Source: an uncultured virus (IMG/VR IMGVR_UViG_3300037560_000199) (lineage: Duplodnaviria; Heunggongvirae; Uroviricota; Caudoviricetes). From it: a stretch of DNA of 64,000 nucleotides. The notes beneath the pieces were generated by a model. It had not been told where the DNA came from, did not search any database, and saw only the letters and a program-made list of their open reading frames with translations. The stretch lies in the IMG/VR virus record IMGVR_UViG_3300037560_000199; one strand, written 5' to 3'. The stretch's first letter is position 1, and every line of letters starts with the position of its first letter. Below, piece after piece: positions 6,525-27,192 of this stretch. The position numbers were made by a program, and so were the translations under genes.

Positions 6525-6553
6525 AATATATCACATTAGCGCTACCGTTGCAA
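6525..6553 (-). promoter_or_regulatory. Leftward sigma70 promoter with operator in spacer
   Basis: Minus strand TTGCAA-17 nt-TATATT with TGn extension; operator at 6533-6548. Confidence 0.75.
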
Positions 6554-6583
6554 AACTCGAGATTTCCGCTCAAAAGAAAAAGC

Positions 6584-6611
6584 TTGACACGGCACCGGTG
6601 ATGTGGAGAAT
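6584..6611 (+). promoter_or_regulatory. Rightward sigma70 promoter with operator
   Basis: TTGACA-16 nt-GAGAAT; operator ACGGCACCGGTGATGT 6589-6604. Confidence 0.7.
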
Positions 6612-6646
6612 GGTGTTCTAGTCTACCACCAGAAGGAGCGATCCAG

Positions 6647-7345
6647 ATGCAGATGAACGAAATCGAGAAGGCACGCCACCAGCGTGAGCAGGAAGAACGG
6701 GAGCGCAGGCGCGAGGAGGAGATCCAAAAGATCCACGACCTCCGTATGGCGGAATTCAAGCTGATCGAGAACGGCATCAAGCCGCTACTCTTTGCTCCCC
6801 TCGCTGCTGACGCGAATCAGTACCGTCAACTCACTCGCCATATCGTCACCGCAGAAGGTGAGAAGGTGGGGACGCTTTCGTACAAGCAGAACTGGTCTTG
6901 GAAGAGCGGTCGCTATTCCGTCAGCAGCAGACGCATCCTGAAGCATGGACGCTACAGCTGGGGAGAAGGTCAACGCTTCTATAAGAAGCTCGACTCTGTG
7001 GTCAAAGCGATCACGAAGTTCTGCATCGCAGTGTCGAATGACGAGGAGCGTGCCAAGGTGCTGCGCAACGAACTGCAGCATTACCGCGAGGTACTCCGCA
7101 ACTCGCAGAGACGCTCGAAATCCATTACAGGGCAGTACTCCGGTACTCTCGCTGTCGATGGGATTGTTGAGCTGCTCGCCAGCGACATCAAACAGGATCA
7201 GCTCGAAGGTCAGGAGATGATGCGCGTGCTGGTTCGCAAGAAGAGAGTGTCCCGTCGTTTCTCCGCTTGGGTGTTGGAGAGGTTCCTCGCTCCCCGTCAG
7301 AAGGAACTGGACAGCCTGGACACATCCAAGGAAAAGGTCAAATAG
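6647..7345 (+). CDS. Hypothetical early protein
   Basis: 232 aa ORF with AAGGAGCG RBS. Confidence 0.75.
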   Translation: MQMNEIEKARHQREQEERERRREEEIQKIHDLRMAEFKLIENGIKPLLFAPLAADANQYRQLTRHIVTAEGEKVGTLSYKQNWSWKSGRYSVSSRRILKHGRYSWGEGQRFYKKLDSVVKAITKFCIAVSNDEERAKVLRNELQHYREVLRNSQRRSKSITGQYSGTLAVDGIVELLASDIKQDQLEGQEMMRVLVRKKRVSRRFSAWVLERFLAPRQKELDSLDTSKEKVK

Positions 7346-7387
7346 GAGAACTAGATCACAGTAACGGTAACGGTCCCGTGATTTAAT
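7345..7387 (+). promoter_or_regulatory. CRP-box/operator/extended -10 promoter cassette
   Basis: GGAGA-actaga-TCACA 7345-7360, operator 7364-7379, TGa-TTTAAT 7382-7387. Confidence 0.75.
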
Positions 7388-7393
7388 GGGTTT

Positions 7394-7605
7394 ACATTCA
7401 GCAACACAGAGGAGGAATCTTACTGCTGCCTAAAACGAGTACGTGCATGCACGGGTAGAATTGAAACGGCATAAAAACTGCGTAACCAGACGCGACTACC
7501 GGCAGGCTCACCAAGGACTCCACACTGTTTCGCTCCAACGTCACACAGTGGACGCACTTGGCACCGTCACCAAGCGGTGGGCAGCAGTAAGATTTCACCT
7601 ACGAC
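7394..7605 (+). ncRNA. Structured leader or ncRNA carrying anti-RBS sequence
   Basis: Perfect 15-bp stem 7416-7430/7580-7594; internal hairpins; CTGTTTCGCTCCAAC at 7525-7539. Confidence 0.6.
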
Positions 7606-7621
7606 AGAAGGAGCGAGACAG

Positions 7622-7942
7622 ATGAGTAAGACAGACAATGAAGACAACCTGAAGCCTCTTGCTGACGAGTACGGCAAGCTCAAGGCTCAGCTAGCTGACC
7701 TGAAGCGGCACATGGTGGACATCAAGGAGATCTTCGAGGTGGCTGGAGTTGCCTCCTTAGAAGGTGACGTCTTCCGCCTCGTGATCTCCCACGTCGATGA
7801 CTCCACGGGTCCCGACTGGAAGAAGATCGCCTTGCGCTACAAGCCTTCCAAGCGAGTCATCGAAGCACCGGGCAACCAGAAGGTGACCCAGCAGGCGCAC
7901 GTGAGAGTGAACGTCTACGCTCGCACGGGGGAGGAGTCATGA
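7622..7942 (+). CDS. Hypothetical protein (N-terminal coiled coil)
   Basis: RBS GGAGCGAGACAG-ATG; ATGA overlap with next gene. Confidence 0.75.
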   Translation: MSKTDNEDNLKPLADEYGKLKAQLADLKRHMVDIKEIFEVAGVASLEGDVFRLVISHVDDSTGPDWKKIALRYKPSKRVIEAPGNQKVTQQAHVRVNVYARTGEES

Positions 7943-8154
7943 GGAACAAGAAACTCCTCGCACGCGCCCTCATAGCGTTGATCGAAACCCTGGTCGAGGA
8001 TGACAATCTCGGTGAGATCAAGATCCACGACGACCGTGGTGGCACGGGTGGTTGGTGGGTCATCTTGACCGACACCAAGACCCTCAACGAGACCACGTAT
8101 CACGTCGCATCCCACCGTGGTCGATTCGCTGCTGACAAGAGCACGATGTCATGA
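7939..8154 (+). CDS. Hypothetical protein
   Basis: GGAGGAG RBS; ATGA coupling. Confidence 0.65.
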   Translation: MRNKKLLARALIALIETLVEDDNLGEIKIHDDRGGTGGWWVILTDTKTLNETTYHVASHRGRFAADKSTMS

Positions 8155-8351
8155 GACAGGAATCCTTCATCAGGTGCTTCAGCATTGGTCCTCGCGTGGA
8201 GTTCTCCTACGAGACTGCGGAGTCCATGGAAAAACTCTGGCCCGATGTCTTGGTAGAGATTCGGAACTTCGAGGGCATCAGTGGTTCTGCCTGCTTCCAC
8301 ACAGAGGAAGGTTCTCTAATCGTTCACGCAAGCTGGGAGGATGAATCATGA
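8151..8351 (+). CDS. Hypothetical protein
   Basis: ATGA coupling at both ends. Confidence 0.6.
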   Translation: MRQESFIRCFSIGPRVEFSYETAESMEKLWPDVLVEIRNFEGISGSACFHTEEGSLIVHASWEDES

Positions 8352-8857
8352 GATACGCAATCGTAACTGCCTCAGCTGACATCGAGGTGATCAAGGGCTA
8401 CCTGCCTACGAACTACCACATCCTGCACGTCGATCCCAATGGTCAGGGCATCCTGATCGCAGGCGAAGACGACCACGGCTGGACGTTGGATGGCTACGTC
8501 ATCCCCCGGCTTGGCTCCGGCCTGCACGCATGCCGAGAGGTGCACCCGGTGTTCATGTCTGAGAATCTCAGCATGGGTCCTGGCTACTGCATGGACGTCC
8601 CCAACGAGTGGATGAAGGTGCCGATACCTGAGTCCACTGAGGCTCGTGATCGACACGAGTCGAATCTCGTGGAGGTCATCGTCTCGCATGAGGCTTGCGA
8701 CGATCTCGAACGCAACGATGAGACCTCGTGGACCTGTCACCTCAACCCGGATTTCTTCCTGCAGGGTAGTGATGAGGAAGTTGCATTCGATGGAACGCTG
8801 GAGCACATCTTCTACATGCTCGACAGCGATCACCTCCGCAGGGAGGGCAGCGCATGA
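8348..8857 (+). CDS. Hypothetical protein
   Basis: GGAGG RBS; ATGA coupling. Confidence 0.7.
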   Translation: MRYAIVTASADIEVIKGYLPTNYHILHVDPNGQGILIAGEDDHGWTLDGYVIPRLGSGLHACREVHPVFMSENLSMGPGYCMDVPNEWMKVPIPESTEARDRHESNLVEVIVSHEACDDLERNDETSWTCHLNPDFFLQGSDEEVAFDGTLEHIFYMLDSDHLRREGSA

Positions 8858-9237
8858 AGTATGCCAAGGTCGAAATACGTGCTGGGTTTATCGATATGCG
8901 TACCTCGTTGGGACGTCGCCTGAAGGAGGCTGGCGCAAAGGTGAACCAGTACGAGGATAAGGCACTCACGTTCATTCACCTCAATGCCGATGAGCGCACC
9001 TTGATCGATGACGTTCTCAAAGAGCTGCACGTGCGCGGCATAATCATCCGCAACCTCGATGACGAGTTGAAGGAAGAGCTGAAGCATGGAGGATCTGTTC
9101 AAGCGTGGGCAGTGGTCTACCAGAGCATGGAGAACATGGACCAGCTCGATGCCGCAGTCGAGCACATGATCGAGACTGTCAAAAAACGGGACATCCGAAT
9201 GGCGAAGATGTTCCCCAAGAAGGAGAAAGCCAAATGA
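8854..9237 (+). CDS. Hypothetical protein
   Basis: GGAGG RBS; ATGA coupling. Confidence 0.7.
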   Translation: MKYAKVEIRAGFIDMRTSLGRRLKEAGAKVNQYEDKALTFIHLNADERTLIDDVLKELHVRGIIIRNLDDELKEELKHGGSVQAWAVVYQSMENMDQLDAAVEHMIETVKKRDIRMAKMFPKKEKAK

Positions 9238-9754: not shown

Positions 9755-9966
9755 TCGACTACGTGTACATCGTCATGGGGCGCTTCGCTACGGACGGTTT
9801 ACAGACTGTCGTCAAGGCATTCGCTAGCGAGGAGCACGCACAGGAGCACGTAAAGCGCATCACGAAACCCCACGACGCTAGTGATGACTACTACTCGCTC
9901 CCGTCATCGGCAGACATGGTAGGTCTCACCTCAGTCTGGATCGAGCGGGTCAGGGTGGAGAAATGA
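9751..9966 (+). CDS. Hypothetical protein
   Basis: GGAGG RBS; GTGA coupling. Confidence 0.65.
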   Translation: MIDYVYIVMGRFATDGLQTVVKAFASEEHAQEHVKRITKPHDASDDYYSLPSSADMVGLTSVWIERVRVEK

Positions 9967-10267: not shown

Positions 10268-10296
10268 TTGACTTCACGGGAGCGGTCCCGTATGAT
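10268..10296 (+). promoter_or_regulatory. Near-consensus sigma70 promoter with operator in spacer
   Basis: TTGACT-17 nt-TATGAT; operator ACGGGAGCGGTCCCGT 10276-10291. Confidence 0.85.
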
Positions 10297-10330: not shown

Positions 10331-11086
10331 ATGCAAGGATTTATCACAATGTGCGGCGCGAAGCGGGTGGAACGCAACGTCCTCAACGACGTGGAACTGC
10401 CGCAGCCGACTCGCACGCACAGTCCCTTCCCTCACGGTGACTTCATCAATCTGGTGGAAGACGAGATGGGCCGAGTCAACCTTTACTTTGGTGAGCAGGC
10501 GTATGCTCTCAATCACGAAGGTGCGCAGATGTTCGGTGCTGCTGAGGTGCGGGGACTGACCCCGATTGCCGAAGGCATCCAGACCATCATCGGTTTCCGG
10601 GGCTCGCACGACAAGACGCTGACTCGCGGTCTGCTGCAAGGCAAGGACGTGATGGTCTGCGACAACCTCGACTTCAATGGCGAGTACGTCATCCAGATGA
10701 AGCACACTCCGCGCAACATGGCACAACGCCTGCGCCACGAGGTCCGCGATCTCATCTACGGGATCAAGGGTCGCAACGATGCCGAGCGCGTGCGTGTCGA
10801 GCGCTACCAAGAAGCGCAGGTGAAGGACAGCACTGCGAATCATGCCATCATCCAGATGCTGCGCGGAGGTGTCATCAACACCCAGCGTGTCGAGAAGGTG
10901 GTCAACGAGTACTACGAGCCGTCGCACGAGGAGCACCTCAACGCGAACGGCGAGCGCACCATCTGGACGCTGCACAACGCAGCGACCGAAGCGCTCAAGG
11001 GCTGCGGCTTGGCAAGCCTGCCCAACAGGACCATGAAGCTCACTGAGCTAATGGACAACGTCACCAACTACGCACTGGCTGCGTAG
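10331..11086 (+). CDS. DUF932/DUF945-like protein
   Basis: SHDKT...VCDN...H...W-x-x-x-NA-x-TE pattern; RBS GGAGCAGAAACAT-ATG. Confidence 0.65.
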   Translation: MQGFITMCGAKRVERNVLNDVELPQPTRTHSPFPHGDFINLVEDEMGRVNLYFGEQAYALNHEGAQMFGAAEVRGLTPIAEGIQTIIGFRGSHDKTLTRGLLQGKDVMVCDNLDFNGEYVIQMKHTPRNMAQRLRHEVRDLIYGIKGRNDAERVRVERYQEAQVKDSTANHAIIQMLRGGVINTQRVEKVVNEYYEPSHEEHLNANGERTIWTLHNAATEALKGCGLASLPNRTMKLTELMDNVTNYALAA

Positions 11087-11159
11087 ACAGTTCGCTCCGC
11101 TGGGATGGGACATGGAGGTCCCTACCAGTTCGAGCGACAGGAACAGGAGCGAACAACAG

Positions 11160-11459
11160 ATGAACTACGAATTGATTTATCGTTCGGGCTACGACGGGCA
11201 TCACCTCTTCCGTAACAAGTTCAACGGACGTCTGGTGATCGCTGATCACTCGAACGACAACCTCATAGGTGATCCCGGCAATCCTGAGGGCACCGATGAT
11301 GGTCTGCTCTACGTGGACTTCAATCGTCCGGTGGAGGTGTACAAGCCCGGTATCTACTCCATCCCCATGGTCAATGCAGATGGTGGGCAGAGCAACTGCC
11401 TGGGCAAATTGGTCGAGATCCACCGCATCGAAGACATCGAAGAGCGGAGGTTCTCATGA
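11160..11459 (+). CDS. Hypothetical protein
   Basis: RBS GGAGCGAACAACAG-ATG. Confidence 0.7.
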   Translation: MNYELIYRSGYDGHHLFRNKFNGRLVIADHSNDNLIGDPGNPEGTDDGLLYVDFNRPVEVYKPGIYSIPMVNADGGQSNCLGKLVEIHRIEDIEERRFS

Positions 11460-11719
11460 CGCAGTTCGACATCACCATCCCGCAGATCGAGAGCGACATC
11501 AGGCGCAACAGGTGGCTCAAGCACCACCAGAAGTCCGTGGACAGAGTCCGCGCCTTAGTCGAAGCGTTGGGCAACGTGCGTGACTGGCAGCTGGATCTGC
11601 TGGAGGAAGTGGCAGACCAGATCAACGAGCGCAGAGAGTGCCCGCTGACTGCTCTGCGACTGCACCAGAACTCCATCCTCGACAACCCTGAGGAGTACCA
11701 GTTTTTCGACAAGGTCTGA
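11456..11719 (+). CDS. Hypothetical protein
   Basis: GGAGG RBS; ATGA coupling. Confidence 0.7.
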   Translation: MTQFDITIPQIESDIRRNRWLKHHQKSVDRVRALVEALGNVRDWQLDLLEEVADQINERRECPLTALRLHQNSILDNPEEYQFFDKV

Positions 11720-11781
11720 AACGGAGCCAAAAGAGTGGATGAGTGCAGGTCGCTACTGCGCAACAAAGAGCTTCACACTGG

Positions 11782-11813
11782 GTAGCGGGGGTCCACGTCT
11801 CGCTACTTTTTTT
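11782..11813 (+). terminator. Rho-independent terminator
   Basis: GTAGCG(GG)...(CT)CGCTAC stem followed by T7. Confidence 0.8.
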
Positions 11814-11819
11814 CAGAAC

Positions 11820-11897
11820 TGTGACGTAGTCGATATTAACGGTAGCGCTAACGTGATTTAATAGTGGTTCAGTCAAAGTTAGTTGGAGCGAGACAGA
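11820..11897 (+). promoter_or_regulatory. CRP-box/operator/extended -10 promoter plus conserved leader
   Basis: TGTGA 11820, operator 11839-11854, TGa-TTTAAT 11857, leader TTCAGTCAAAGTTAGTTGGAGCG. Confidence 0.8.
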
Positions 11898-12023
11898 ATG
11901 AAGTACGGAGCAGAGCACTACAAGTGCAGCCTCTCGAAGAAACAGAATCGTCGCAACCGTCGCGTTGCTCGCAGCCAAGAGCGTCGTGTCGGTAAAGCAG
12001 CAGCACAGGAGCGAAACAGATGA
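11898..12023 (+). CDS. Arg-rich 41-aa peptide
   Basis: MKYGAEHYKCSLSKKQNRRNRRVARSQERRVGKAAAQERNR; cassette RBS; ATGA coupling; not in ORF track. Confidence 0.65.
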   Translation: MKYGAEHYKCSLSKKQNRRNRRVARSQERRVGKAAAQERNR

Positions 12024-12382
12024 GCAAGTTCAGTGATCCGATGCCCCGAAGCGAGCACGAGTGCCCCCGGTGCCATCAGGTACTTCAGCCTCTCAGCAAT
12101 GGGATTCCTCACCACTGCAAGGTGAAGGAGTTGCCCTACGAAGAGATGTGCGAAGCGCTGCAGGGTCTGCAGGAGCATTACGGCGAGACGTATGCTCAGC
12201 ACCGCAACGAGACCGCACAGTTCGGTGACTCCTGGCCCGGTGCGCAGATCGAGTTGAGCGAGATGGGCGCAAGCGTCCGCAAGCTCGAAGCTGAGATCGA
12301 AGCGCATCCCGACCACAACCCTCTGCGCAGCTGGGACGAGAAGCTCAGCGATGATTTCACTGACGACGACATCCCGTTTTAG
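12020..12382 (+). CDS. Zn-finger/coiled-coil protein ending in SSB-like tail DDDIPF
   Basis: CPRC...HHC; C-terminus DFTDDDIPF; RBS GGAGCGAAACAG. Confidence 0.75.
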   Translation: MSKFSDPMPRSEHECPRCHQVLQPLSNGIPHHCKVKELPYEEMCEALQGLQEHYGETYAQHRNETAQFGDSWPGAQIELSEMGASVRKLEAEIEAHPDHNPLRSWDEKLSDDFTDDDIPF

Positions 12383-12398
12383 GAAGGAGCGAAACAGT

Positions 12399-12614
12399 AT
12401 GGAAATTGATATCAGAGGATCGCAGGGCAACGCAAGGTTTCTCATGGGCAGCGCCGAGCGATGGGCGAAGCAACTGGAGTGGGATCAATCAGCGATTGAC
12501 GAGATGATGGAAGACATGGAGTCAGGTGACTACAACCACCTGCTCGACGTGATCGAGGAGAAGTTCAAGTACGTCGTCACGCTCATCGGTCGCGACGGGG
12601 AGGACGACGAATGA
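12399..12614 (+). CDS. Hypothetical protein
   Basis: RBS GGAGCGAAACAGT-ATG; GSQGNA...MESGDYNHLL. Confidence 0.7.
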   Translation: MEIDIRGSQGNARFLMGSAERWAKQLEWDQSAIDEMMEDMESGDYNHLLDVIEEKFKYVVTLIGRDGEDDE

Positions 12615-12853
12615 ATCTTGATCGACCGATTCTACTCAGCGTCTGAGCCGATGGTGAAATATCCTTCCGTGAGAAGGACGAGCCAAGGCACCGCACCGCG
12701 CTTCCGTTCCACAGTGTGGATACGAAGGAGGAAGCGCAGAGCATGCAGGTCAGACACTGCAGGTATCACTACGATGGACGCTACATCCTGAACCACTGGA
12801 GTGGTGACGTCGAAGACATTTTCACCCTAGCCGATACGCTGGGCCTGGACTAG
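12611..12853 (+). pseudogene. 80-codon ORF interrupted by in-frame TGA at codon 12
   Basis: GGAGG RBS and ATGA coupling; frame stays open after TGA 12644-12646 to TAG 12853 and fills the intergenic gap. Confidence 0.55.
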
Positions 12854-12867
12854 GAGGAGCGAAACAG

Positions 12868-13332
12868 ATGACCACGCACGTTGACAGAGCACGCACACTC
12901 GCACGCATTGCGCACCACGGTCAGGTGGACAAGGCAGGCGACGACTACTTCACCGGGCACCTGACGCGAGTTGCTGAGGCAGCTGACTACTACATCGACA
13001 TGAGCGTGGGCTACCTGCACGACATCGTGGAGGACACCGTGGTTACGTTGGTGGATCTCCATACTCTGGACTTTAGCTACGACATCATCGCAGCTGTCCA
13101 GGCACTGACGCACGACAAGGACAGGCATACCTACGCCGAGTACATCACGCACATCATCGGCATTGGAGGCAGCGCTCTGCGGGTGAAGTTCAGCGACACA
13201 CGAGATCATCTGCGCGAGGAGACTATGCATGCCATCACTGCTTCGCTAGTCAAGCGCTACGAGGATGCCTTCGAGCGGCTAGCGCGAGCTAAAGGGAAGG
13301 AGGCAGAGAAGCTCCGAGAAACGGGTTTCTAG
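12868..13332 (+). CDS. HD-domain phosphohydrolase, small alarmone ((p)ppGpp) hydrolase-like
   Basis: AHHGQVDKAG..Y..H...LHDIVEDT...VKFSD. Confidence 0.8.
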   Translation: MTTHVDRARTLARIAHHGQVDKAGDDYFTGHLTRVAEAADYYIDMSVGYLHDIVEDTVVTLVDLHTLDFSYDIIAAVQALTHDKDRHTYAEYITHIIGIGGSALRVKFSDTRDHLREETMHAITASLVKRYEDAFERLARAKGKEAEKLRETGF

Positions 13333-13335
13333 AAG

Positions 13336-13411
13336 TGTGACGCAGTCGCTATTAACGCTAACGCTCCCGTGGTCTAATGTACGCTCAGTCATTCGTTGGA
13401 GCGAAGCTAAG
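13336..13411 (+). promoter_or_regulatory. CRP-box/operator/extended -10 promoter cassette
   Basis: TGTGA 13336, operator 13355-13370, TGg-TCTAAT 13373, GTTGGAGCG. Confidence 0.75.
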
Positions 13412-13798
13412 ATGCAGACCACCAGACAACGTCGAAGAGCAGCCTCGAACAACCGAGAGAACCCCAACCAGAACAAGTGCGGGCTCGCGATTGCTCAAGC
13501 TCTCGGGGTAGACGACAAGGTCCGTTACCTGCACACCATCCGCGACCTCAAGCGTGCAGCCTCTCACTACTTCAGCGTGCGCAGTCGAGCGACTGCTCTG
13601 GGTCTGAAGAAAGGCAAGCGCACCACCGTGGGCTCCATGCGCAGGCACTGCGCACTCCAAGGGGCTCGTTGGTTCCTTGTGTGGACGCCCCTGCACGTGC
13701 TCCTGCTCAATGCCAAGGGCACCACCATCATCGACGCTGACCCGCGCAAGCGCGATTCGCGCCCGGTCCTGGGAGTCTGGGGCTTGTTCCCGAAATAG
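13412..13798 (+). CDS. Basic hypothetical protein with Arg-rich N-terminus
   Basis: MQTTRQRRRAA...; cassette RBS. Confidence 0.7.
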   Translation: MQTTRQRRRAASNNRENPNQNKCGLAIAQALGVDDKVRYLHTIRDLKRAASHYFSVRSRATALGLKKGKRTTVGSMRRHCALQGARWFLVWTPLHVLLLNAKGTTIIDADPRKRDSRPVLGVWGLFPK

Positions 13799-13799
13799 C

Positions 13800-13890
13800 G
13801 GATGTTCAAAAGTGTGACGCAGTCGCTATTAACGGCACCGGTAACGTGGTCTAATAGTGGTTCAGTCAAAGTTAGTTGGAGCGAAGCAAT
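13800..13890 (+). promoter_or_regulatory. CRP-box/operator/extended -10 promoter plus conserved leader
   Basis: TGTGA 13813, operator 13832-13847, TGg-TCTAAT 13850, leader identical to 11868-11890. Confidence 0.8.
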
Positions 13891-14097
13891 ATGACAACGG
13901 TTAGACAAGAGATACAACACCTCGAAGAGCAGACGCGCAAAGCGCTGCGTGACATCAACGACGCTGAGCATCGCATCTCGATCAACAGCGACTACGTTGG
14001 TGCAGTGCTGGACCTTCAACGTGCAAGCGGTCGCCTGCTCTTCGCAAGCGAGCGCATCGCCTTTCTCGCAGAGCAGATGGTGGAGGAAGGAGCATGA
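13891..14097 (+). CDS. Hypothetical coiled-coil protein
   Basis: Cassette RBS; ATGA coupling. Confidence 0.7.
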   Translation: MTTVRQEIQHLEEQTRKALRDINDAEHRISINSDYVGAVLDLQRASGRLLFASERIAFLAEQMVEEGA

Positions 14098-14324
14098 AAG
14101 CATCAACCTTGATGAAGCTCTCCATCCAGAAGCGCAACTCAGCGATGGAGGAATGCGTCGATGTCCTAGTGCTGGGTAACAACGTGTTCACCGTTGGCAG
14201 GACCGACAACGGGTTCGCCAGCTGGGCAGTCAGCGATCACGACGACAGCAGCTATTGGGGTCACTACTTCTCGACTCACGAGGCGGCAGTGGCTGACATG
14301 TACGAGAGGGCTGGAGTCAAGTGA
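14094..14324 (+). CDS. Hypothetical protein (YWGHYF motif)
   Basis: AAGGAG RBS; coupling. Confidence 0.7.
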   Translation: MKASTLMKLSIQKRNSAMEECVDVLVLGNNVFTVGRTDNGFASWAVSDHDDSSYWGHYFSTHEAAVADMYERAGVK

Positions 14325-14437
14325 AAGCGACGATGTCAATGTGTCAGACGCTGATGCTGGTCGCAGACGACGACCTGCTCAGCGATCTGGACCAAATACT
14401 CGAATCAAAAATGCCGACAAGGCAAGGAGCGAAACAG

Positions 14438-14662
14438 ATGAAAGTTGAAGTAACCGAGACGTTCGGAGTGCGCCGCAGCAAGGACGGCGAGATCGAGATC
14501 CACGAGGGTCATGCAGTCACCGGACTGTGCATCCTCAGAGCCCCCACGCTGGAGCAGGCAGTTGCTGACCTTCGCGAGATGATGGAAGGCGATTCCATTG
14601 GCGAGTTCGAGGTGCACGTGATCGATGTGCATCCGACCAACGACAAAGACTTGCTGTCATGA
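14438..14662 (+). CDS. Hypothetical protein (may also start at GTG 14321)
   Basis: RBS GGAGCGAAACAG-ATG in frame with upstream GTG. Confidence 0.6.
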   Translation: MKVEVTETFGVRRSKDGEIEIHEGHAVTGLCILRAPTLEQAVADLREMMEGDSIGEFEVHVIDVHPTNDKDLLS

Positions 14663-14919
14663 GCAAGACAACCATCGACCTCACTCCCACGTGGCGAGCA
14701 GTAATGTCTGCCTACGTGAGAGTGCTCACAGAGGGCAATGCAGAAGGTCAACACATCGCACGCGACGAGCTACTGAACGTGGGCAAATGGCTGGATGAAT
14801 TCAACACGATGGAGTGGGGAAAGATCCTGCGCGCCGCCGACGCTAGCGACGATGATGATGTGCGGACAGCTGTCGCAGCCGTGCGTGAGTGGTTCGCCAG
14901 CGATGAGGAGCAGTCGTGA
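14659..14919 (+). CDS. Hypothetical protein (TIDLTPTW motif)
   Basis: ATGA coupling. Confidence 0.7.
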   Translation: MSKTTIDLTPTWRAVMSAYVRVLTEGNAEGQHIARDELLNVGKWLDEFNTMEWGKILRAADASDDDDVRTAVAAVREWFASDEEQS

Positions 14920-15701: not shown

Positions 15702-15725
15702 ACTAGCGAACACGAGGCGGAATAG

Positions 15726-15818
15726 GGATGTTCCGTTTTGTGACGTGGATCACAGTAACGGTAGCGCTAACGTGTTTTAATAGATGTTCAGTCAAAGTTA
15801 GTTGGAGCAAAACAGAAT
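15726..15818 (+). promoter_or_regulatory. CRP-box/operator/extended -10 promoter plus conserved leader
   Basis: Perfect TGTGA-cgtgga-TCACA 15739-15754, operator 15758-15773, TGt-TTTAAT 15776. Confidence 0.85.
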
Positions 15819-17300
15819 ATGATCTTTTCACCTTTCCAAACCGCGATCTTCGACTGGTGCAAAGCGCACCTCGAAACGGCAGGCGCACTCGTCGTGCAAG
15901 CTGTCGCAGGTTCCGGCAAAACCACCGTCATCGTTGAGGCCGCGAATTTCATTCCTGCAGATCACAAGGCTGCGTTCCTCGCGTTCAACAAGAACACCGC
16001 TGACAAGCTGCGCGAGAAGCTTCCCGAGCACGTCGAAAGCAAAACGCTCAATGCTCTAGGATGGGCGGCATGCCGCTACAACCTTGGCAAAGCGATCAAG
16101 GTCAATGCGAGCAAGACCCGCGACCTGATCCGCAGGCACCTGTCCGACGATGCCGCTGAGGTGATGGGCGACCTGATGAATCTCATCGGCAAGGCGAAGT
16201 CTCACGGTCTCATACCGGTAGGCTACGCGAACCCGACTGGGACCTATGAGGCAACCGACGAGCGCTGGATTGAGCTGATGGACCGGTTCGACATCGACCC
16301 CAACAATGGCACCACCGAAGCTGAGTTTCTAGGATGGGCGAACACGCTGCTCAAGCTAGGGCTCGAAGAAACCCACGAGCTTGACTTCGATGATCAGCTG
16401 TATATGCCCGTCGCACTCGACATGCGCACGTGGGGTTACGACTGGGTCATCGTCGATGAGGCGCAAGATGTCTCCCACGTGCAGCGCACCTTGCTTCGCA
16501 AGTTTCTCAAGCGCGGCGGCAGAGTGATTGCAGTGGGCGATTCTCATCAAGCTATCTACGGGTTTCGCGGTGCAGACTCGCAGTCACTCGCGAACATCGG
16601 GCGACTGTTCAAGGCTGATGAGCTACCGCTCTCGATCAGCTATCGTTGCCCGCGCAAGGTGATCGAGATAGCTAAGCAATTTGTCCCGCACATTGAGTGC
16701 AGCGACACTGCCGAAGAAGGCGAGGTGTTGAACCCGACAGCATGGTCAATCGATTCGTTCAGCGACGATGACCTGATCGTCTGCCGCAACACTGCGCCGC
16801 TGATCGAGCTTGCATACAAGTGCATCGCGGAAGGCAAGAAGGTGCACGTGATGGGTCGCGACATCGGCACCGGTCTGATCAACGTGGTCAAGAAAGCAGG
16901 CGGCAAGCGTATCAGCACCATCGAAGAGCTTCGCCCGAAGCTTGATGCATGGCAACAACGACAGCTGCGCAAGGCGGGCGAAGATGAGGCGAAGCAAGCT
17001 GCAGTAACCGATAAGGTTGACTGCCTCAACGTGGTGATGGCGGGACTCGAAACCATCGCTGAGCTAGTCGCTGCGATTAACAGCATCTTCAGCAATGATG
17101 TGAAGGGAACCACCTTAGCAACGGTGCACAAGGCGAAGGGTATGGAAGCGCCGCGAGTGTTCATACTCGAACCGCACCTCATGCCATCACCTTGGGCGCG
17201 CCAGCCCTGGCAACAAGAGCAGGAAGCCAACCTGCAATACGTTGCCGTGACCCGTGCGCTTGAGACGCTGGTCTACCTTCCTTTGGACATAATCGAATAG
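15819..17300 (+). CDS. UvrD/Rep-family superfamily 1 helicase
   Basis: AVAGSGKT, VDEAQD, VGDSHQAIYGFRGA, SYRCP, TVHKAKGME, YVAVTRA. Confidence 0.95.
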   Translation: MIFSPFQTAIFDWCKAHLETAGALVVQAVAGSGKTTVIVEAANFIPADHKAAFLAFNKNTADKLREKLPEHVESKTLNALGWAACRYNLGKAIKVNASKTRDLIRRHLSDDAAEVMGDLMNLIGKAKSHGLIPVGYANPTGTYEATDERWIELMDRFDIDPNNGTTEAEFLGWANTLLKLGLEETHELDFDDQLYMPVALDMRTWGYDWVIVDEAQDVSHVQRTLLRKFLKRGGRVIAVGDSHQAIYGFRGADSQSLANIGRLFKADELPLSISYRCPRKVIEIAKQFVPHIECSDTAEEGEVLNPTAWSIDSFSDDDLIVCRNTAPLIELAYKCIAEGKKVHVMGRDIGTGLINVVKKAGGKRISTIEELRPKLDAWQQRQLRKAGEDEAKQAAVTDKVDCLNVVMAGLETIAELVAAINSIFSNDVKGTTLATVHKAKGMEAPRVFILEPHLMPSPWARQPWQQEQEANLQYVAVTRALETLVYLPLDIIE

Positions 17301-17317: not shown

Positions 17318-17342
17318 AGCCCCGGAAACGGGGCTTTTTTTT
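17318..17342 (+). terminator. Rho-independent terminator
   Basis: AGCCCCG-GAAA-CGGGGCT followed by T-run. Confidence 0.9.
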
Positions 17343-17354
17343 GATTGTCAGAAA

Positions 17355-17435
17355 TGTGAACTGCGTCACAGTAACGGGAGCGCTAACGTGAGAGAATAGC
17401 TATTCAATCGAGATAGTGAGTTGGAGCGAAACGGC
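17355..17435 (+). promoter_or_regulatory. CRP-box/operator/extended -10 promoter cassette
   Basis: AAA-TGTGA-actgcg-TCACA 17355-17370, operator 17374-17389, TGa-GAGAAT 17392. Confidence 0.85.
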
Positions 17436-18209
17436 ATGAACAAGAACGGCATCATTCTCTGGGAAGGCAAGTCCAAGCTTGCGGGACATCGCGAGGTTGA
17501 CATCGTTGTGATCGCAGTCGGTCTCAACGATAGCAAGAATCGCAAGACCGGCAACATGCTGCAGACCTATATCCTTCTGCGCGACGTCTCGCCAGTGGAA
17601 GCAATCAAGCTAGGCTTTGACGGTGCGATCTGCGGCAAGTGCGTGCACCGTGGCGACGACGGGTTCAGTGGTCGCACTTGCTACGTGAACGTGGGGCAAG
17701 GTGTCACATCGGTTTGGCTCTGCTTTCAGCGCGGCAATTACGCCAAGGTGCAGAGCACCGAAGAGATTCGCGAAGTCGGTGCGGGTCGCATGGTTCGACT
17801 GGGAACGTACGGCGACCCCAAAGCAGTGCCCGCTGAGATCTGGGAAGCATTGCTCTCTCGTTCAAAGGGTCACACTGGCTACACTCACCAATGGGAAAGC
17901 GCACGCGGCGCAAGATGGCAACGGCTTGTGATGGCAAGTGCGGATACCCCCAACGATGCAACGATGGCGCACGCGAAAGGGTTCCGTACGTTTCGAGTGA
18001 ATCGCGACGGGGTGAAGGCGAAAGGTGAAGTGATATGTCCTGCGAGCGAGGAAGCGGGCAAGAAGCTGCAGTGTGATACGTGCGGCGCATGCAACGGGAC
18101 AGCCACGCAGCGCAAGGGTTCGATTACAATCAAGGCGCATGGTTCGCAGGTGAGCGAGCGCAACCTTGACAAGCTTGATGCGCGGATCATCGCGAGAATG
18201 GCGGCATGA
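17436..18209 (+). CDS. Cys-rich conserved phage protein (GP88-like, possibly Fe-S binding)
   Basis: CGKC...CYV, RLGTYGDP, TGYTHQW, CPAS, CDTCGAC, AHG. Confidence 0.6.
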   Translation: MNKNGIILWEGKSKLAGHREVDIVVIAVGLNDSKNRKTGNMLQTYILLRDVSPVEAIKLGFDGAICGKCVHRGDDGFSGRTCYVNVGQGVTSVWLCFQRGNYAKVQSTEEIREVGAGRMVRLGTYGDPKAVPAEIWEALLSRSKGHTGYTHQWESARGARWQRLVMASADTPNDATMAHAKGFRTFRVNRDGVKAKGEVICPASEEAGKKLQCDTCGACNGTATQRKGSITIKAHGSQVSERNLDKLDARIIARMAA

Positions 18210-18477: not shown

Positions 18478-18564
18478 AGTTTCTGGGGGTCTGGTGACGT
18501 CACAATGGCGGGCGCTGCGGACAGCTGCGCGATGGTTCGCGGGTGCCCATATAGGCCCAAATAC

Positions 18565-18659
18565 GGATGTTCTAAAGTGTGAACTAGTCGATATCTACGG
18601 TAACGGTCCCGTGGCATAATGGTGTTTCAGTCAAGTTATCAAGTTGGAGCGAAAACGAA
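18565..18659 (+). promoter_or_regulatory. CRP-box/operator/extended -10 promoter cassette
   Basis: TGTGA 18578, operator 18597-18612, TGg-CATAAT 18615, GTTGGAGCG. Confidence 0.8.
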
Positions 18660-18836
18660 ATGCCACATCCTTACCAGAGCCAGTTACGCGCCCTCGAAGC
18701 CTCGCTACTTGCGAAGCTCAATGATCGCGACTGGGACAACTGCCGTCAGACCCTGCGCCGCGAGCTTGCCGATGTTCGCGCTACCATTCAGCAGGTTGCC
18801 AATTGGACCGACACGTCCGCTCAGGAGCAAAGCTAG
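18660..18836 (+). CDS. Hypothetical 58-aa helical protein
   Basis: Cassette RBS GGAGCGAAAACGAA-ATG; not in ORF track. Confidence 0.65.
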   Translation: MPHPYQSQLRALEASLLAKLNDRDWDNCRQTLRRELADVRATIQQVANWTDTSAQEQS

Positions 18837-19003: not shown

Positions 19004-19263
19004 GCGATCTAATCCAAATCGAACGCGAGCGCTTCGTTGACATCGTGCGCTACAACGTGGTGCTTTGGTCAACCTTCGCAATCGATGATAGCTCAATCTC
19101 TTGCATGCAATACATCGATGACCGTGATGGGTGCGTGCAAGCCCAAGCCATTTACCCCGCGCCCGCGCATCGTGGCGAGCCGGTGGTTCCCATCTATGAG
19201 ACGCGCCCCGAGCATTTCGAGGCTTCGGTTATGCGCGAGCTTCCCGACTACGAAAGCGAGTAG
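19000..19263 (+). CDS. Hypothetical protein
   Basis: GAGG RBS; ATGA coupling. Confidence 0.65.
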   Translation: MSDLIQIERERFVDIVRYNVVLWSTFAIDDSSISCMQYIDDRDGCVQAQAIYPAPAHRGEPVVPIYETRPEHFEASVMRELPDYESE

Positions 19264-19270
19264 CCTATGC

Positions 19271-19335
19271 GCGGCAGCGCTACCGTGATCCACGTCACAG
19301 AACGGGCAACTGCCTGAACTGTGACGGAGATCACA
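19271..19335. promoter_or_regulatory. Operator plus two CRP-type boxes at end of early region
   Basis: GCGGCAGCGCTACCGT 19271-19286; CGTGA-N6-TCACA 19284-19299; TGTGA-N6-TCACA 19320-19335. Confidence 0.7.
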
Positions 19336-19409
19336 CCAGAAAGGTGGCACCCGTCACACCCCGGCTTGACAAACAAGTCGCCGAAGGCCTCCCATTTCAA
19401 TATTTTTGA

Positions 19410-19973
19410 GTGTATACTCCTATAATCTCTTTTCTCAACGGGACCGTTGATGTGGACGAGTACGAGCCTATCGCAAAGATCTGGATCAGTGGGAAGCCCC
19501 CCCTCATCCGCATGCGTGCTCGTCTCGCGTGGGGTGAAGCCATGGAATACCCCCACGTCTTCAAGACCCGCTCCCACGCTCGTCGCATCATGGAAGCATT
19601 CGCCACCGCAGGGCAGATCGCCACCGATGATTGGAATCCGGTCTACTACCAGCCTCCGAAGTACAAGCTGCCGGAAACCGACTTCTCCTACACCCGCAAT
19701 GTCTCAGGCAAGTATGTGGTCCCCGTCGCCGCTGGTGTCGAGACTCACGGTGCCGTGGCTGAACTGCACTTAGCGCTCCCGTGTATTCCCGATGCAGATA
19801 TCTTCGATGACCCCCGAGCTGAGTTAGCCGAGCACTTTCCGCGCATCGTCAAACATGCCCCCCGCAGGCACCAGCGCATGTCCCGTTTGGAGGAGATCAA
19901 TTTGCTGCATATCGTTCGAGCTGAGAAGACGGATATCTTTATCCCCACGGGAGCGTTAGTGAATAATGATTGA
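19410..19973 (+). CDS. Hypothetical protein (start uncertain)
   Basis: 187-aa ORF coupled to next gene. Confidence 0.55.
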   Translation: MYTPIISFLNGTVDVDEYEPIAKIWISGKPPLIRMRARLAWGEAMEYPHVFKTRSHARRIMEAFATAGQIATDDWNPVYYQPPKYKLPETDFSYTRNVSGKYVVPVAAGVETHGAVAELHLALPCIPDADIFDDPRAELAEHFPRIVKHAPRRHQRMSRLEEINLLHIVRAEKTDIFIPTGALVNND

Positions 19974-24971: not shown

Positions 24972-24975
24972 TACG

Positions 24976-25119
24976 ATTGCGCTTGCGTGGTATCTGTGAT
25001 TCTTCATCTGTTTCACGCTCCGCCACGCAGTGCAATGGCTTCATGGACTAAGTCGTTGCGGGGACCGCTCGTTGCAACAGGAATATTCCACTCCTAGTCG
25101 CGAGCGGTCCCCACTTTTT
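24976..25119 (+). ncRNA. Candidate trans-acting sRNA antisense to early-gene RBS
   Basis: Extended -10 TGa-TACGAT 24969-24977; hairpin 24976-25036 with loop CATCTGTTT(CA)CGCTCC; 12-bp perfect stem 25060-25071/25101-25112 then T5. Confidence 0.6.
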
Positions 25120-25136
25120 ACTAAGGAGGGGAACCC

Positions 25137-25589
25137 ATGAGTCTCGATGACGATATCCGTCAAGCTATCGCAAACAACCTCACTGCCGAGATCGGCACCC
25201 GTCTCAACGAGCGTCTCACTCAGGCTGATGCCGATGCAGAGCGTATAGGCAAGCTGGAGAAGCAGAACAAAGAATACGAGATGAAACACAGCCGCTGGGA
25301 GATTCATCAGTCTGTAGTGACAGCTCTCGATGAACGTGAGGACGAGGTGTTCAAACGCGAACACGAGATGGAGATCCAAGAAGCGAAAATGGAGATCCGT
25401 CAGGAGTGGGCTCGCACGGCGCACGAGGATTCAATGAAGGTTCTGGAGATCGTCTTCAAAGGACCGGCGCAACGACTCGCCTTCGACCTGCAAGGTGGCC
25501 TCAGTGGGTTGATGACTGCAAACGGCATGAGCCTGAGCCCCTACGCTAACCTCAACGGGAAGATCGAGACCGATGGCGAGTCTGGGTGA
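25137..25589 (+). CDS. Coiled-coil hypothetical protein
   Basis: AAGGAGG RBS. Confidence 0.7.
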   Translation: MSLDDDIRQAIANNLTAEIGTRLNERLTQADADAERIGKLEKQNKEYEMKHSRWEIHQSVVTALDEREDEVFKREHEMEIQEAKMEIRQEWARTAHEDSMKVLEIVFKGPAQRLAFDLQGGLSGLMTANGMSLSPYANLNGKIETDGESG

Positions 25590-25785
25590 CTGGATAGTCA
25601 CGTTCGAGTTTAATCGACTCCCCCAGCGCAGACAGACACCGCTAGAGTCACAGTGGGCATTCGAGGAGATCAAGGATGGTTTCTGGCTCAACGCTGACCA
25701 CCAGATCTGCCGTCAGGGTCAAGGTCACTACTGGGTCCCACCTTCACGTATTATGCTGATCGAGCCCCTGGAGAAACAGATGTGA
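25573..25785 (+). CDS. Hypothetical protein
   Basis: Overlap coupling. Confidence 0.55.
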   Translation: MASLGDWIVTFEFNRLPQRRQTPLESQWAFEEIKDGFWLNADHQICRQGQGHYWVPPSRIMLIEPLEKQM

Positions 25786-25997
25786 GCCCATGGACCCACT
25801 CGATCTGCGAGCGCTGCTGGCGATTTCGCGAAGATGGACTTCCCGTTCCGGCGACCATGCGCAATGAGCACAGGTCTCTGGAGAATTGTTGCTTCTGTGA
25901 TCAGAAGCACGAATCTGGTATCTATACCCGGCACGATCCCAAAGACCCAGCTCTCAAATGCGGAGGAGAGCACGATGACGAAGCAAACGCGGGGTAA
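25782..25997 (+). CDS. Cys-rich small protein
   Basis: CERCW...CCFC...SGIY; GTGA coupling. Confidence 0.6.
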   Translation: MSPWTHSICERCWRFREDGLPVPATMRNEHRSLENCCFCDQKHESGIYTRHDPKDPALKCGGEHDDEANAG

Positions 25998-26208
25998 GAA
26001 CGGAAGGTTTGGACCGGTGATAGAGTCACCAGCTGCCGAGAACGATCCGATGCCAACAGAGCGTCTAACGCGAATGGAGTGGAACCCTTGCGGTCACGAC
26101 TTCGCAGTGATGACCCTTACCTCCAGCTACCCAATGCCCAGTCGATGGCACCGATTCTGGTCGCGAGCGCTCATGGGCGTGCACTGGAAATACGTTGACG
26201 ATGCCTGA
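25975..26208 (+). CDS. Hypothetical protein
   Basis: GGAGGAG RBS. Confidence 0.55.
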   Translation: MTKQTRGKNGRFGPVIESPAAENDPMPTERLTRMEWNPCGHDFAVMTLTSSYPMPSRWHRFWSRALMGVHWKYVDDA

Positions 26209-26383
26209 AGACGACTTTCTGAAAACGGCTCCGCAGCCTCCCATAGTGGCGCAGTTCAACGCGGAGAGCGGCGACTGGGAGATTCTGGTCCAAGATCAGT
26301 GGGTCAGTATCTCCCATCTCATCGACTCCCTGATCGAGATGCGCACCATCTTGGAAGCGGAAGTGAAAGGCACATTGCCGTGA
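26201..26383 (+). CDS. Hypothetical protein
   Basis: Overlap coupling. Confidence 0.5.
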   Translation: MPEDDFLKTAPQPPIVAQFNAESGDWEILVQDQWVSISHLIDSLIEMRTILEAEVKGTLP

Positions 26384-26703
26384 GGGATCTCTACTACATG
26401 TATCCGAAGGCTCATCACTCAATGTTTTTACGAACCAAGCAGAGTATCGAAGGGGACTGCATCACCTACGAGCTGAGAGTAGCGCGTGCACTCATGGAGG
26501 ACATGCGCGACATCACGAAGTTCGAGGGATGGTTCAATGTTCGGGGGATGTACTTTCGAGAGCCTTTCGACGCTATCGTTGACTGGGTTGAGCTTCAGCC
26601 TGAGGGGCTCGCCATGCAGCTTCTGAGGCTGGCGTACATTGCAGCTCGACACGAGGAGGGACCATACGGTGAACCGGAGGAGCTTTCTAAAGACACTGAT
26701 TAG
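26380..26703 (+). CDS. Hypothetical protein
   Basis: GTGA coupling. Confidence 0.55.
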   Translation: MRDLYYMYPKAHHSMFLRTKQSIEGDCITYELRVARALMEDMRDITKFEGWFNVRGMYFREPFDAIVDWVELQPEGLAMQLLRLAYIAARHEEGPYGEPEELSKDTD

Positions 26704-26878
26704 TGCAGCGGGTGCAGTTGCTGCTGCTCCCTACGTGCCAGCGATCATTCGCGAGCCAGTGCGTCAATGGGGTGAGCGACAGCAGGCAATGATCGATGCA
26801 CTCGCTGCCAGCATGCTCCAGACCAAAGAGGTGATGACTGCCAACGTGCTGAACCGTGCCTTCGGAGATCCCGATTGA
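26669..26878 (+). CDS. 69-aa twin-arginine-signal protein with capsid-like C-terminal segment
   Basis: GAGGAGG RBS; MNRRSFLK plus hydrophobic stretch; C-terminal LAASMLQTKEVMTANVLNRAF. Confidence 0.75.
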   Translation: MNRRSFLKTLISAAGAVAAAPYVPAIIREPVRQWGERQQAMIDALAASMLQTKEVMTANVLNRAFGDPD

Positions 26879-27048
26879 CCCACTACCTCTGGATCGCAGC
26901 TCACTTTACTCGTTGGTATTTGTGGGGTGCTCTGATTTGGATTTTCGCCTATCCAGAGACTGGATTTTGGACTGCCCTCACCCTGACCCTCATCGTAGCC
27001 GGAATCGAGATTAAATACCTAAATCCCCGCCACTGGACCGTTAATTGA
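26875..27048 (+). CDS. 57-aa membrane protein
   Basis: TTGA overlap; two hydrophobic segments; not in ORF track. Confidence 0.45.
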   Translation: MTHYLWIAAHFTRWYLWGALIWIFAYPETGFWTALTLTLIVAGIEIKYLNPRHWTVN

Positions 27049-27172
27049 CCTAACAGCGGAACTAAGGGGAACTACCGTTCGTCGGATCGAGAACATGCGG
27101 GCTCCAGCCGGTTTCGCCCTTCTAAGTCATTGATGCTTTCGCCCCTCAGCCAGTTCGTTAGACTCCATAGTG

Positions 27173-27192
27173 TATAATGGTAGCGCTACCGT
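27173..27192 (+). promoter_or_regulatory. TATAAT overlapped by operator palindrome
   Basis: TATAAT 27173-27178; ATGGTAGCGCTACCGT 27177-27192. Confidence 0.65.

Follow-up and report, generated by a model that had tools for sequence, protein, structure and literature searches.

Repeated promoter-operator cassettes and GCUCC elements complementary to early ribosome-binding sites in an uncultured tailed phage

Introduction

Could the early genes of a phage be controlled as a class through their translation starts, and by RNA as well as by protein? The question is raised by the early region of an uncultured tailed phage (IMG/VR record IMGVR_UViG_3300037560_000199), of which a stretch of 64,000 nucleotides (nt), hereafter the window, was analysed. 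What is known of temporal control in lytic phages comes mostly from a handful of model systems, in which proteins exert it. For positions 6525 to 27192 the initial annotation, made from the letters alone, had proposed three layers, in which host CRP activates, one phage repressor shuts off, and small RNAs (sRNAs) complementary to the ribosome-binding sites (RBSs) silence about 14 genes via a single seed. The reading favoured here, with a probability of about 0.55 for the whole, is that activator-dependent operator cassettes would head many short early transcription units, each cassette being a mobile promoter-operator-leader, and that RNA elements containing GCUCC would act on early RBSs, in cis where they adjoin a stop codon and, for two of them, as candidates for action in trans.

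Results

A repeated promoter-operator-leader cassette

Eight plus-strand copies of a cassette of about 95 nt emerged from a repeat search (families of 4-9 copies), and an nhmmer profile built from them recovers all eight in the window (E 3e-19 to 3e-29). Their palindromes start at 7364, 11839, 13355, 13832, 15200, 15758, 17374 and 18597, which are used as labels below:

7331..7397, plus strand: cassette P7364, with half box GGAGAACTAGATCACA (right half alone), palindrome 7364-7379 and TG-A-TTTAAT
11780..11902, plus strand: terminator 11780-11815, then cassette P11839 and its leader
13317..13419, plus strand: cassette P13355
13795..13898, plus strand: cassette P13832
15163..15268, plus strand: cassette P15200, with the box shifted by 1 nt
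15721..15820, plus strand: cassette P15758, with perfect box TGTGACGTGGATCACA, ahead of the helicase gene
17337..17447, plus strand: cassette P17374, with perfect box TGTGAACTGCGTCACA
18559..18667, plus strand: cassette P18597

The 5' part of the cassette reads ..AATAnCGGATGTTC.. and often contains the stop codon of the upstream gene. It is followed by a box, TGTGAC-N5-(TCACA, TCGAT or TCGCT), by 3 nt, and by the palindrome ACGGTAGCGCTAACGT, 3' of which come G-n-(TTTAAT, TCTAAT, CATAAT or GAGAAT) and ..GTTCAGTCAAAGTTAGTTGGAGCGAAACAG..ATG, the copies having in common a leader of about 35 nt that ends in the RBS GGAGCGAAAC. Separate terminators precede only two of the cassettes. As predicted promoters they have an extended -10 and no -35 element, TTGACA being matched with 4 mismatches in seven of the eight and with 2 in P15200.

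Comparisons were made with L001, which is the same phage as the window; with L093, a close relative (helicase 93% identical in amino acids (aa); nt identity of the locus about 81%) that covers window positions 10436-19447; with L002-L007 and many metagenome contigs, at a helicase identity of about 72%; and with L173 and L174, relatives at 50% from a profile scan of IMG/VR. The equivalent promoters of relatives read TTGACA-CGGnAGCGCTnCCGTG-n-TATAAT, and since they carry the homologous TG-n-TATAAT, the register of the -10 is fixed: the palindrome fills the 17-bp spacer, the window hexamers align with TATAAT, and CGTG provides the TG of the extended -10. L093 keeps boxes, palindromes and leaders, but its cassettes have swapped places, with other cassette types at orthologous sites. 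Joints of 18594 with 15200 and of 15133 with 13793 are seen in metagenome contigs from other runs, both at cassette borders. P18597 lies inside the 3' end of the open reading frame (ORF) 18206-18619, which is either shorter than called or has had a cassette inserted into its coding sequence.

The spacer palindrome as an operator

The 16-bp palindrome ACGGTAGCGCTACCGT has 11 matches in the window at up to 3 mismatches, where 0.13 are expected and none of 100 shuffles reaches 11. With 13832 (4 mismatches) and the degenerate copies at 6589 and 19438 the total comes to about 13-14, and the first and last copies, at 6533 and 27177-27192, bound the region. Across the clade it is conserved between -35 and -10, as seen in 28 further loci that have promoter-like sites; its outer ACGG/CCGT and central GCGC are kept from phage to phage. 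A palindrome in this position is also frequent in the PeSL elements of T4-like phages, where it is read as the stem-loop of a terminator (PMC2839356). The same reading was rejected here, as 8 of 12 window palindromes form no hairpin better than shuffled sequences (-4 kcal/mol or weaker). Being conserved in sequence and mostly non-folding, the palindrome is better read as the operator of a dimeric protein that would occlude RNA polymerase, and the data support a sequence-specific protein site.

Among the 100 window proteins scanned (59 with Pfam, 89 with PHROGs, 48 with both libraries), none matches a helix-turn-helix family. The product of 8854-9237 has a sub-threshold ribbon-helix-helix match (19.9 bits, cut-off 27). 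The families of genes 7622, 8348 and 10331, which are conserved beside promoters, have no sequence match in PDB; for the first two, profile searches against PDB sequences gave nothing at E < 0.009. The AlphaFold2 model of the gene 7622 family is poor (predicted local distance difference test, pLDDT, 53.5), while that of gene 6647 is good (pLDDT 82), yet has no Foldseek/PDB match at E 0.001 or better.

For the DNA layers of the initial annotation, the outcome is partly favourable. The stereotyped promoter with CRP-type box, palindrome and leader is confirmed by the eight copies, and the count of 13 palindromes holds. The operator half of its second layer stands as a spacer dyad conserved across the clade; the one repressor protein is putative, no DNA-binding fold having been identified.

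Operator halves often read GGAGC|GCTCC, the same words as the early Shine-Dalgarno (SD) sequence and its complement, possibly by coincidence (L003:13086-13120, L004:9516-9567 and 11748-11799, window 10276-10291 and 17374-17389). Outside the cassettes, palindromes were found at the following predicted regulatory sites:

6518..6554, minus strand: leftward promoter with TTGCAA as -35-like element, palindrome 6533-6548 in the spacer and TG-n-TATATT as extended -10; predicted to drive small leftward genes starting at 6491
6584..6646, plus strand: canonical sigma-70-type promoter TTGACA-16-GAGAAT with degenerate operator 6589-6604; its leader and RBS GGAGCGATCCAG serve gene 6647-7345
10268..10296, plus strand: canonical promoter TTGACT-17-TATGAT with palindrome 10276-10291 in the spacer
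19264..19460, no strand assigned: regulatory hub at the right end of the cassette region, with palindrome 19271-19286 overlapping a TCACA box, three TGTGA/TCACA boxes (19284, 19320, 19343) spaced 36 and 23 bp, TATACT/TATAAT -10-like hexamers, and operator-like ACGGGACCGTTGATGT at 19438-19455 where the next operon starts
27168..27192, plus strand: TGTATAAT, then a palindrome that is nearly perfect, ATGGTAGCGCTACCGT, upstream of gene 27232 and of the terminase gene; probably an operator-controlled promoter serving the terminase/late operon

The upstream box

Perfect copies of TGTGA-N6-TCACA occur three times in the window (15739, 17355 and 19320; 0.17 expected, with none of 100 shuffles reaching 3). 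TGTGA stands at a fixed offset of -19 from the palindrome in six of the eight cassettes, and both halves of the box are perfect in only two. The centre of the box lies 29 nt upstream of the predicted -10 hexamer, i.e. at -41.5 relative to the predicted start. In class II CRP-dependent promoters such as galP1, TGTGA-N6-TCACA is centred at -41.5 and is combined with an extended -10 and no -35. The geometry of the cassettes fits a class II CRP-type activator site, and they resemble galP1-type promoters in the sequence and computed position of the box, the missing -35 and the extended -10. They differ in being found in a phage, in about eight copies and with a second protein site that fills the spacer, and the role of CRP in them is putative. 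No CRP-like protein was found among the 100 window proteins scanned with Pfam and PHROGs.

Counted over all promoter-like palindrome sites, TGTGA is at the fixed offset in 6 of 9 in the window and in 4 of 5 in L093, and the box is present in none of the 28 other loci, which mostly have TTGACA instead. By this comparison the box arose as a derived trait in the window/L093 lineage.

Phage activators are well known from about this position. The Mor dimer of phage Mu recognises 16 bp that hold two inverted repeats of 5 bp each and are centred at -43.5 (PMC4390567), and by this analogy a phage-encoded activator would be an equally conventional reading of the box. It is possible, although we hold it only tentatively, that the cassettes are middle promoters activated by a phage protein, in the manner of Mu Mor/C and T4 MotA, and that the TTGACA promoters at 6584 and 10268 are the truly early ones. 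Two canonical promoters do stand at the left of the module, promoters that depend on an activator and lack a -35 are the standard middle class of phages, and the word upstream of the same operator varies by lineage (TGTGA, TATTTAACATAAT or TGACTTACAAA), which a swapped phage factor would explain. Yet the motif equals the CRP consensus down to its A/T flanks and is computed to lie exactly at -41.5, and no activator was recognised: gene 6647 has no PDB match, and a homologue is present in L174, which has no box. For this last reason a link between gene 6647 and the TGTGA box was rejected.

The two other upstream words are absent from the window. TATTTAACATAAT is found in L002-L007 (e.g. L003:9679-9748), in either orientation and about 8 bp upstream of TTGACA, and operator promoters bearing it were noted in L003, L004 and L007. 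L174 carries TGACTTACAAA upstream of its operator promoters (5770-5835 and 9833-9900). At L093:6620-6690 a TTGACA -35 and a TATACT -10 have been gained by the promoter of the gene 17436 homologue, and this promoter's TGTGA..TCACA box lies 15 bp further upstream, with the centre near -56.5, a non-canonical position.

A shared ribosome-binding site of the early genes

The leader/RBS 18-mer has 7 matches at up to 3 mismatches, compared with 0.09 expected. Of the 28 crude plus-strand gene models between 6.6 and 19.3 kb, 13 have GGAGC[GA]A ahead of them, as against 1 of the 61 models outside that stretch (Fisher P = 3e-7). It is found at promoter-proximal starts and at starts that follow an intergenic gap, and never at overlapping, coupled starts; five internal, promoterless starts have it (11160, 12020, 12399, 12868 and 14438). 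The relatives use GGAGCA(C/A)GA likewise. The canonical CCUCC of 16S rRNA cannot pair with the C that follows GGAG, so some selector other than the ribosome seems to be at work. A private SD context, GGAGC, is shared by the early genes whose translation begins de novo.

Such a selector could be a phage protein. In T4, the RegB/S1 site is an 11-nt word, GGAGRAYARAA, in early RBSs, and an extended early RBS word of this kind lets one factor, RegB with S1 or RegA, inactivate a class of messages (PMC1702504); PMC3014915 is likewise said to deal with this control of early T4 messages. The early RBS type here is likewise specific to the early class, and GGAGCGAAAC could by analogy be the target of a RegB-like nuclease, of a RegA-like repressor, or of the conserved Arg-rich peptide encoded behind P11839:

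11898..12023, plus strand: 41-aa Arg-rich ORF, MKYGAEHYK...NRRNRRVARSQERR..., first gene 3' of P11839

We regard this as quite improbable: no RegA or RegB family was matched among the 89 proteins scanned with PHROGs or the 59 scanned with Pfam, a C at position 5 is rare in the RegB sites described (PMC1702504), and the complementary RNA elements treated below would be left unexplained. The T4 factors are proteins, whereas the sole matching partner found here is RNA containing GCUCC. The stop codon of the 41-aa ORF overlaps the start of gene 12020; the ORF has conserved counterparts in L093, L173 and L174, located there ahead of the gene 6647 homologue. Its product resembles arginine-rich-motif peptides, and could be an RNA binder or antiterminator.

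Complements of the early RBS in non-coding RNA

Four non-coding plus-strand elements contain complements of the early RBS and leader (anti-RBS elements). In the list, z compares the predicted fold with shuffled sequences:

7397..7606, plus strand: structured 5' leader RNA of about 210 nt (z -4.0), of gene 7622, with a 20-bp closing stem (7410-7430 / 7580-7600)
11087..11159, plus strand: intergenic structure predicted to sequester an RBS, with anti-RBS GTTCGCTCC at 11090-11098, 4 nt past the stop codon
17301..17343, plus strand: 3' untranslated region (UTR) of the helicase gene, with anti-RBS TCGCTCCAAC directly past the stop codon (1 nt) and an intrinsic terminator at 17318-17343
24972..25126, plus strand: intergenic RNA element with a degenerate operator, TG-n-TATCTG, anti-RBS 25004-25021, a hairpin, a hairpin with a 13-bp stem, and U5

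Positions 7525-7539 (CTGTTTCGCTCCAAC) are an exact 15/15 complement of GTTGGAGCGAAACAG, and 17301-17310 an exact 10-mer complement of the leader/RBS; exact plus-strand complements of at least 10 nt number 2, compared with 0.355 expected. The element at 11090 is the complement of the next gene's own RBS. Positions 25004-25021 read CATCTGTTTC + CA + CGCTCC, which is complementary to GGAGCG..GAAACAGATG, start codon included. The mean duplex energy with 14 early start regions was then calculated for 15,994 plus-strand windows of 24 nt, 14 late start regions serving as control. The four elements rank 1, 4, 9 and 17 among these 24-nt pieces, and are the best four non-coding complements of early starts in the whole stretch. 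The top eight distinct sites are:

7521, z -6.5, non-coding
25005, z -4.8, non-coding
44701, z -4.3, coding
17297, z -4.1, non-coding
39449, z -4.0, coding
8505, z -3.9, coding
11089, z -3.8, non-coding
27109, z -3.8, non-coding

Non-coding sites thus make up 5 of the top 8, compared with 9.7% of all windows and with 1 of 8 for the late control. The fifth non-coding site was set aside as an anti-RBS, being weak and unstructured:

27100..27145, plus strand: anti-RBS-like segments, GCTCC and two TTTCGCCC, within the intergenic stretch 27049-27232, which is unusually unstructured (z +1.8)

All this could arise without any control at the RNA level, if the RBS simply rides on a recombining cassette, as in PeSL-like concerted evolution, and the anti-RBS elements are debris of inverted cassettes or parts of a terminator module. 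Cassettes do exchange between loci, PeSLs likewise span the distance from stop codon to SD/start and mediate shuffling (PMC2839356), the GCTCC elements belong to a single conserved family of terminators, present twice per genome, and the insert 7397-7606 is lineage-specific. We nevertheless consider this explanation unlikely. The RBS type is also present at the five promoterless internal starts; the homology at 7525 stops at 15 nt, and none continues into the leader sequence; the anti-RBS elements concentrate in sense-strand non-coding RNA; and GCTCC is kept while its flanks vary.

Action in cis or in trans

Two of the elements have good partners in cis. The anti-RBS 11090-11098 pairs with GGAGCGAAC (11146-11154) of gene 11160 in the minimum free energy (MFE) fold of 11078-11170 (z -3.1), and the enclosed hairpin 11100-11128 shows compensatory changes in L093. 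That at 17301 pairs with the RBS of the next gene in the MFE fold of 17296-17445 (z -4.0); since this fold crosses the terminator and the promoter, it is relevant to read-through RNA only. Both elements are conserved in L093, and both most likely act in cis, by RBS sequestration, translational coupling or insulation.

The RNAs 7397-7606 and 24972-25126 do not fit pairing in cis, and are candidates for early repression in trans. The anti-RBS 7525-7539 is predicted at the apex of an internal hairpin of the leader, whose own RBS is free (summed cis-pairing probability about 0), and it complements a GTT that only promoter-proximal leaders of other genes carry. Each of the 14 early start regions pairs with the segment 7517-7545 at an energy of -15 kcal/mol or better. 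The seed at 25005 is predicted to be single-stranded, ahead of two hairpins and U5 (z -4.7), and pairs with its own downstream start region at -11.2 kcal/mol, compared with a mean of -20.2 for the early ones. The 3' end of this second RNA looks like a terminator, and a weak resemblance to a promoter is seen on its 5' side; the first has no terminator. No Rfam family was matched at the gathering threshold, and none in 7300-7700 at E up to 5. Of the 50 loci that IMG/VR yielded in a scan with the 15-mer, none proved related to 6400-8200 in blastn comparisons, and the 7397-7606 RNA is absent from L173 and L174. Variant contigs from other runs cover 7346-7692, 7475-7626 and 7520-7625 with 7-12 differences.

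That sRNAs with a single seed silence some 14 genes, on top of a host activator and one repressor, is on these grounds doubtful. In its favour, 7525 complements the consensus leader 15/15, GTT included, and not its own RBS, and reaches all 14 early starts; 25005 complements RBS and AUG, is a poor partner for its own downstream RBS and is built like an sRNA; and 17301 and the elements of relatives have the stop-seed-terminator layout of 3'UTR-derived sRNAs. The leader 7397-7606 is however a 5'UTR with no terminator, sRNAs as separate species are a prediction, 11090 and 17301 have their cis partners, and the whole records of relatives are without comparable long anti-RBS elements. For another form of the idea, in which a processed leader RNA of about 190 nt and terminator-linked 3'UTR RNAs would silence at least 13 early starts in trans, on top of promoters that would respond to the metabolic state of the host by way of a CRP-type activator, we likewise see little likelihood.

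The RNA layer of the initial annotation accordingly survives in part. The common early leader/RBS and the four non-coding anti-RBS elements that it described are borne out by the counts and ranks given above, and the proposed preference for early starts is seen in the top eight sites. The elements are real, and their anti-SD is kept in relatives. The single trans seed for about 14 genes is doubtful. Only 7525 and 25005 resist a cis reading; 11090 and 17301 pair with the next RBS in the predicted folds.

GCTCC elements in relatives

In 18 of 19 loci of relatives, ..GCTCC.. is found 4-16 nt past the stop codon of the gene 10331 homologue, at the site orthologous to 11087, and is followed by a conserved terminator and then by the promoter and RBS of the helicase; in L004 it sits after one extra small ORF. 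GCTCC is retained despite variable flanks, and some of these elements match one particular RBS over 10-11 nt. Terminator-like hairpins number 69 in the window plus 17 relatives, and 19 of them are preceded by GCTCC at a distance of at most 30 nt, where about 1.7 would be expected. GCTCC is itself preceded by C in the window and in L093, whose RBS is GGAGCG, and by T in most relatives, whose RBS is GGAGCA. At the level of sequence, the private SD context and the GCUCC elements that match it are real, and conserved in the clade.

In several relatives the terminator module reads GCTCC-(N2-4)-CCCCC-N18-22-GGGGG-T6-8 and occurs twice per locus, which makes it a second repeated regulatory cassette (L007:8904-8950 and 9827-9877; L118:4100-4145 and 5010-5057; L095:628-673 and 1550-1601; L109:303-355 and 1193-1240).

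Points against the favoured reading

Several observations weigh against the reading of activator-dependent operator cassettes with GCUCC RNAs. On the DNA side, promoters, terminators and RNAs are all predictions; the hexamers TTTAAT and TCTAAT of the window are without the usual A at -11; the box motif at up to 2 mismatches shows no excess (30 compared with 41.8 expected), and five of the eight cassettes have its left half-site alone; and no DNA-binding protein for box or palindrome was found in Pfam, PHROGs, PDB profile or structure searches. On the RNA side, the anti-RBS of the 11090 orthologue pairs with a different partner in the MFE fold of L093, and the 7397-7606 RNA is absent from the relatives at about 72% that were examined. 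No long complement came out of two whole records of relatives when each was scanned with its own RBSs (best z -4.7 and -5.3), and the antisense count of 9-mers is 0 in two of three records. Since the GCTCC elements are one conserved terminator family, their counts are not independent and partly reflect shared ancestry. For covariation of RBS and anti-RBS, which the initial annotation had named as a check, the picture is mixed: the base before GCTCC tracks the RBS of the lineage in most cases, but there are four exceptions (L007-9827, L113, L109-1193 and L006), and complementarity past GGAGC is only slightly longer for a phage's own RBSs (0.90 nt) than for those of other phages (0.69 nt).

Gene content and neighbourhood

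The window is a tailed-phage genome, siphovirus-like and not T4-like, and the region treated here is its early/replication module. PHROG matches identify a DNA polymerase (231-2765, minus strand), a primase (2894-4996), a UvrD-type helicase (15819-17300), a large terminase (28096-29691) and structural genes that extend to 63 kb. Nearly every ORF from 5 to 28 kb is without family assignment in Pfam and PHROGs, and no tRNA genes were found in the window. Compared with the helicases of Pseudomonas, Xanthomonas and Sphingomonas siphoviruses, that of the window reaches no more than 39% identity, and a search of genome contigs with it returned only relatives at 26-43%, in three metagenome-assembled genomes. 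DNA of the window is present in marine-sediment metagenome runs, which may be its source; the phage collection searched held no near-identical record. Scans with a cassette 21-mer and with gene 25137 returned only the phage's own contig, and a metagenome scan with gene 6647 gave no match. Homologues of gene 6647 at 61-93% are known (P0001-P0006).

Discussion

In the proposed mechanism, host RNA polymerase would need a dimeric activator at -41.5, most simply one of the CRP/FNR type, and a phage protein conserved in the clade would bind the palindrome and occlude the promoter. GCUCC-containing complements in untranslated regions would then pair with early RBSs. Those adjacent to a stop codon would cover the following RBS on polycistronic or read-through RNA as long as no ribosome terminates on them, which would result in translational coupling or insulation, and the 7397-7606 leader and the 24972-25126 element may repress early translation in trans.

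The promoter-operator part of this scheme is known phage logic varied, combining PeSL-like cassettes, activator-dependent promoters and a spacer operator. As described for PeSLs (PMC2839356), there are many composite copies that run from the upstream stop codon through promoter and palindrome to SD/start, among small ORFan early genes, and recombination from cassette to cassette reshuffles genes, here in L093 and at the contig joints. The PeSL promoter is, in that account, a consensus sigma-70 promoter with an AT-rich upstream part, whereas the cassettes have no -35 and a TGTGA box computed at -41.5. In PeSLs the palindrome forms a stable G/C stem-loop that acts as a terminator, whereas here it is mostly non-folding and is conserved in sequence. 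PeSLs belong to T4-like phages, unlike this siphovirus-like genome. A second paper (PMC4122927) is also said to deal with PeSL-type mobile cassettes in T4-like phages.

Use of a host regulator would have a precedent in phage T1, where host cAMP-CRP acts on several promoters (pir, dam, recE) as a repressor (PMC6737242). T1 resembles the present case in that host CRP, whose role here is putative, would act at several promoters of a phage regarded as lytic; it differs in that CRP represses, and a repeated cassette or class II layout does not appear in the parts of that account drawn on here (PMC6737242).

The RNA elements can be compared with bacterial systems as well. The 17301 element and its counterparts in relatives resemble CpxQ-type sRNAs in the succession of stop codon, short single-stranded complement and Rho-independent terminator, and the 11090 element, an anti-SD beside the upstream stop codon paired with the next SD, resembles coupling by RBS sequestration. 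Both 3'UTR-derived sRNAs of the CpxQ type and translational coupling by RBS sequestration are known mechanisms. What sets the phage elements apart from them is that the same word recurs at several sites and matches a whole class of genes.

The cassettes extend the PeSL idea beyond T4-like phages, with a dyad that resembles a protein operator and not a stem-loop. If the activator reading is true, class II activator-dependent early promoters would tie infection to host physiology. If the GCUCC elements act as proposed, the conserved succession 'stop codon - GCUCC - terminator', observed in some 20 related marine-sediment phages, would be a search signature for such a layer elsewhere, and silencing by GCUCC in trans would be an RNA-only counterpart of T4 RegA/RegB. 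Class-wide control of early translation by base-pairing to a standardised RBS would then be a new regulatory layer in phages.

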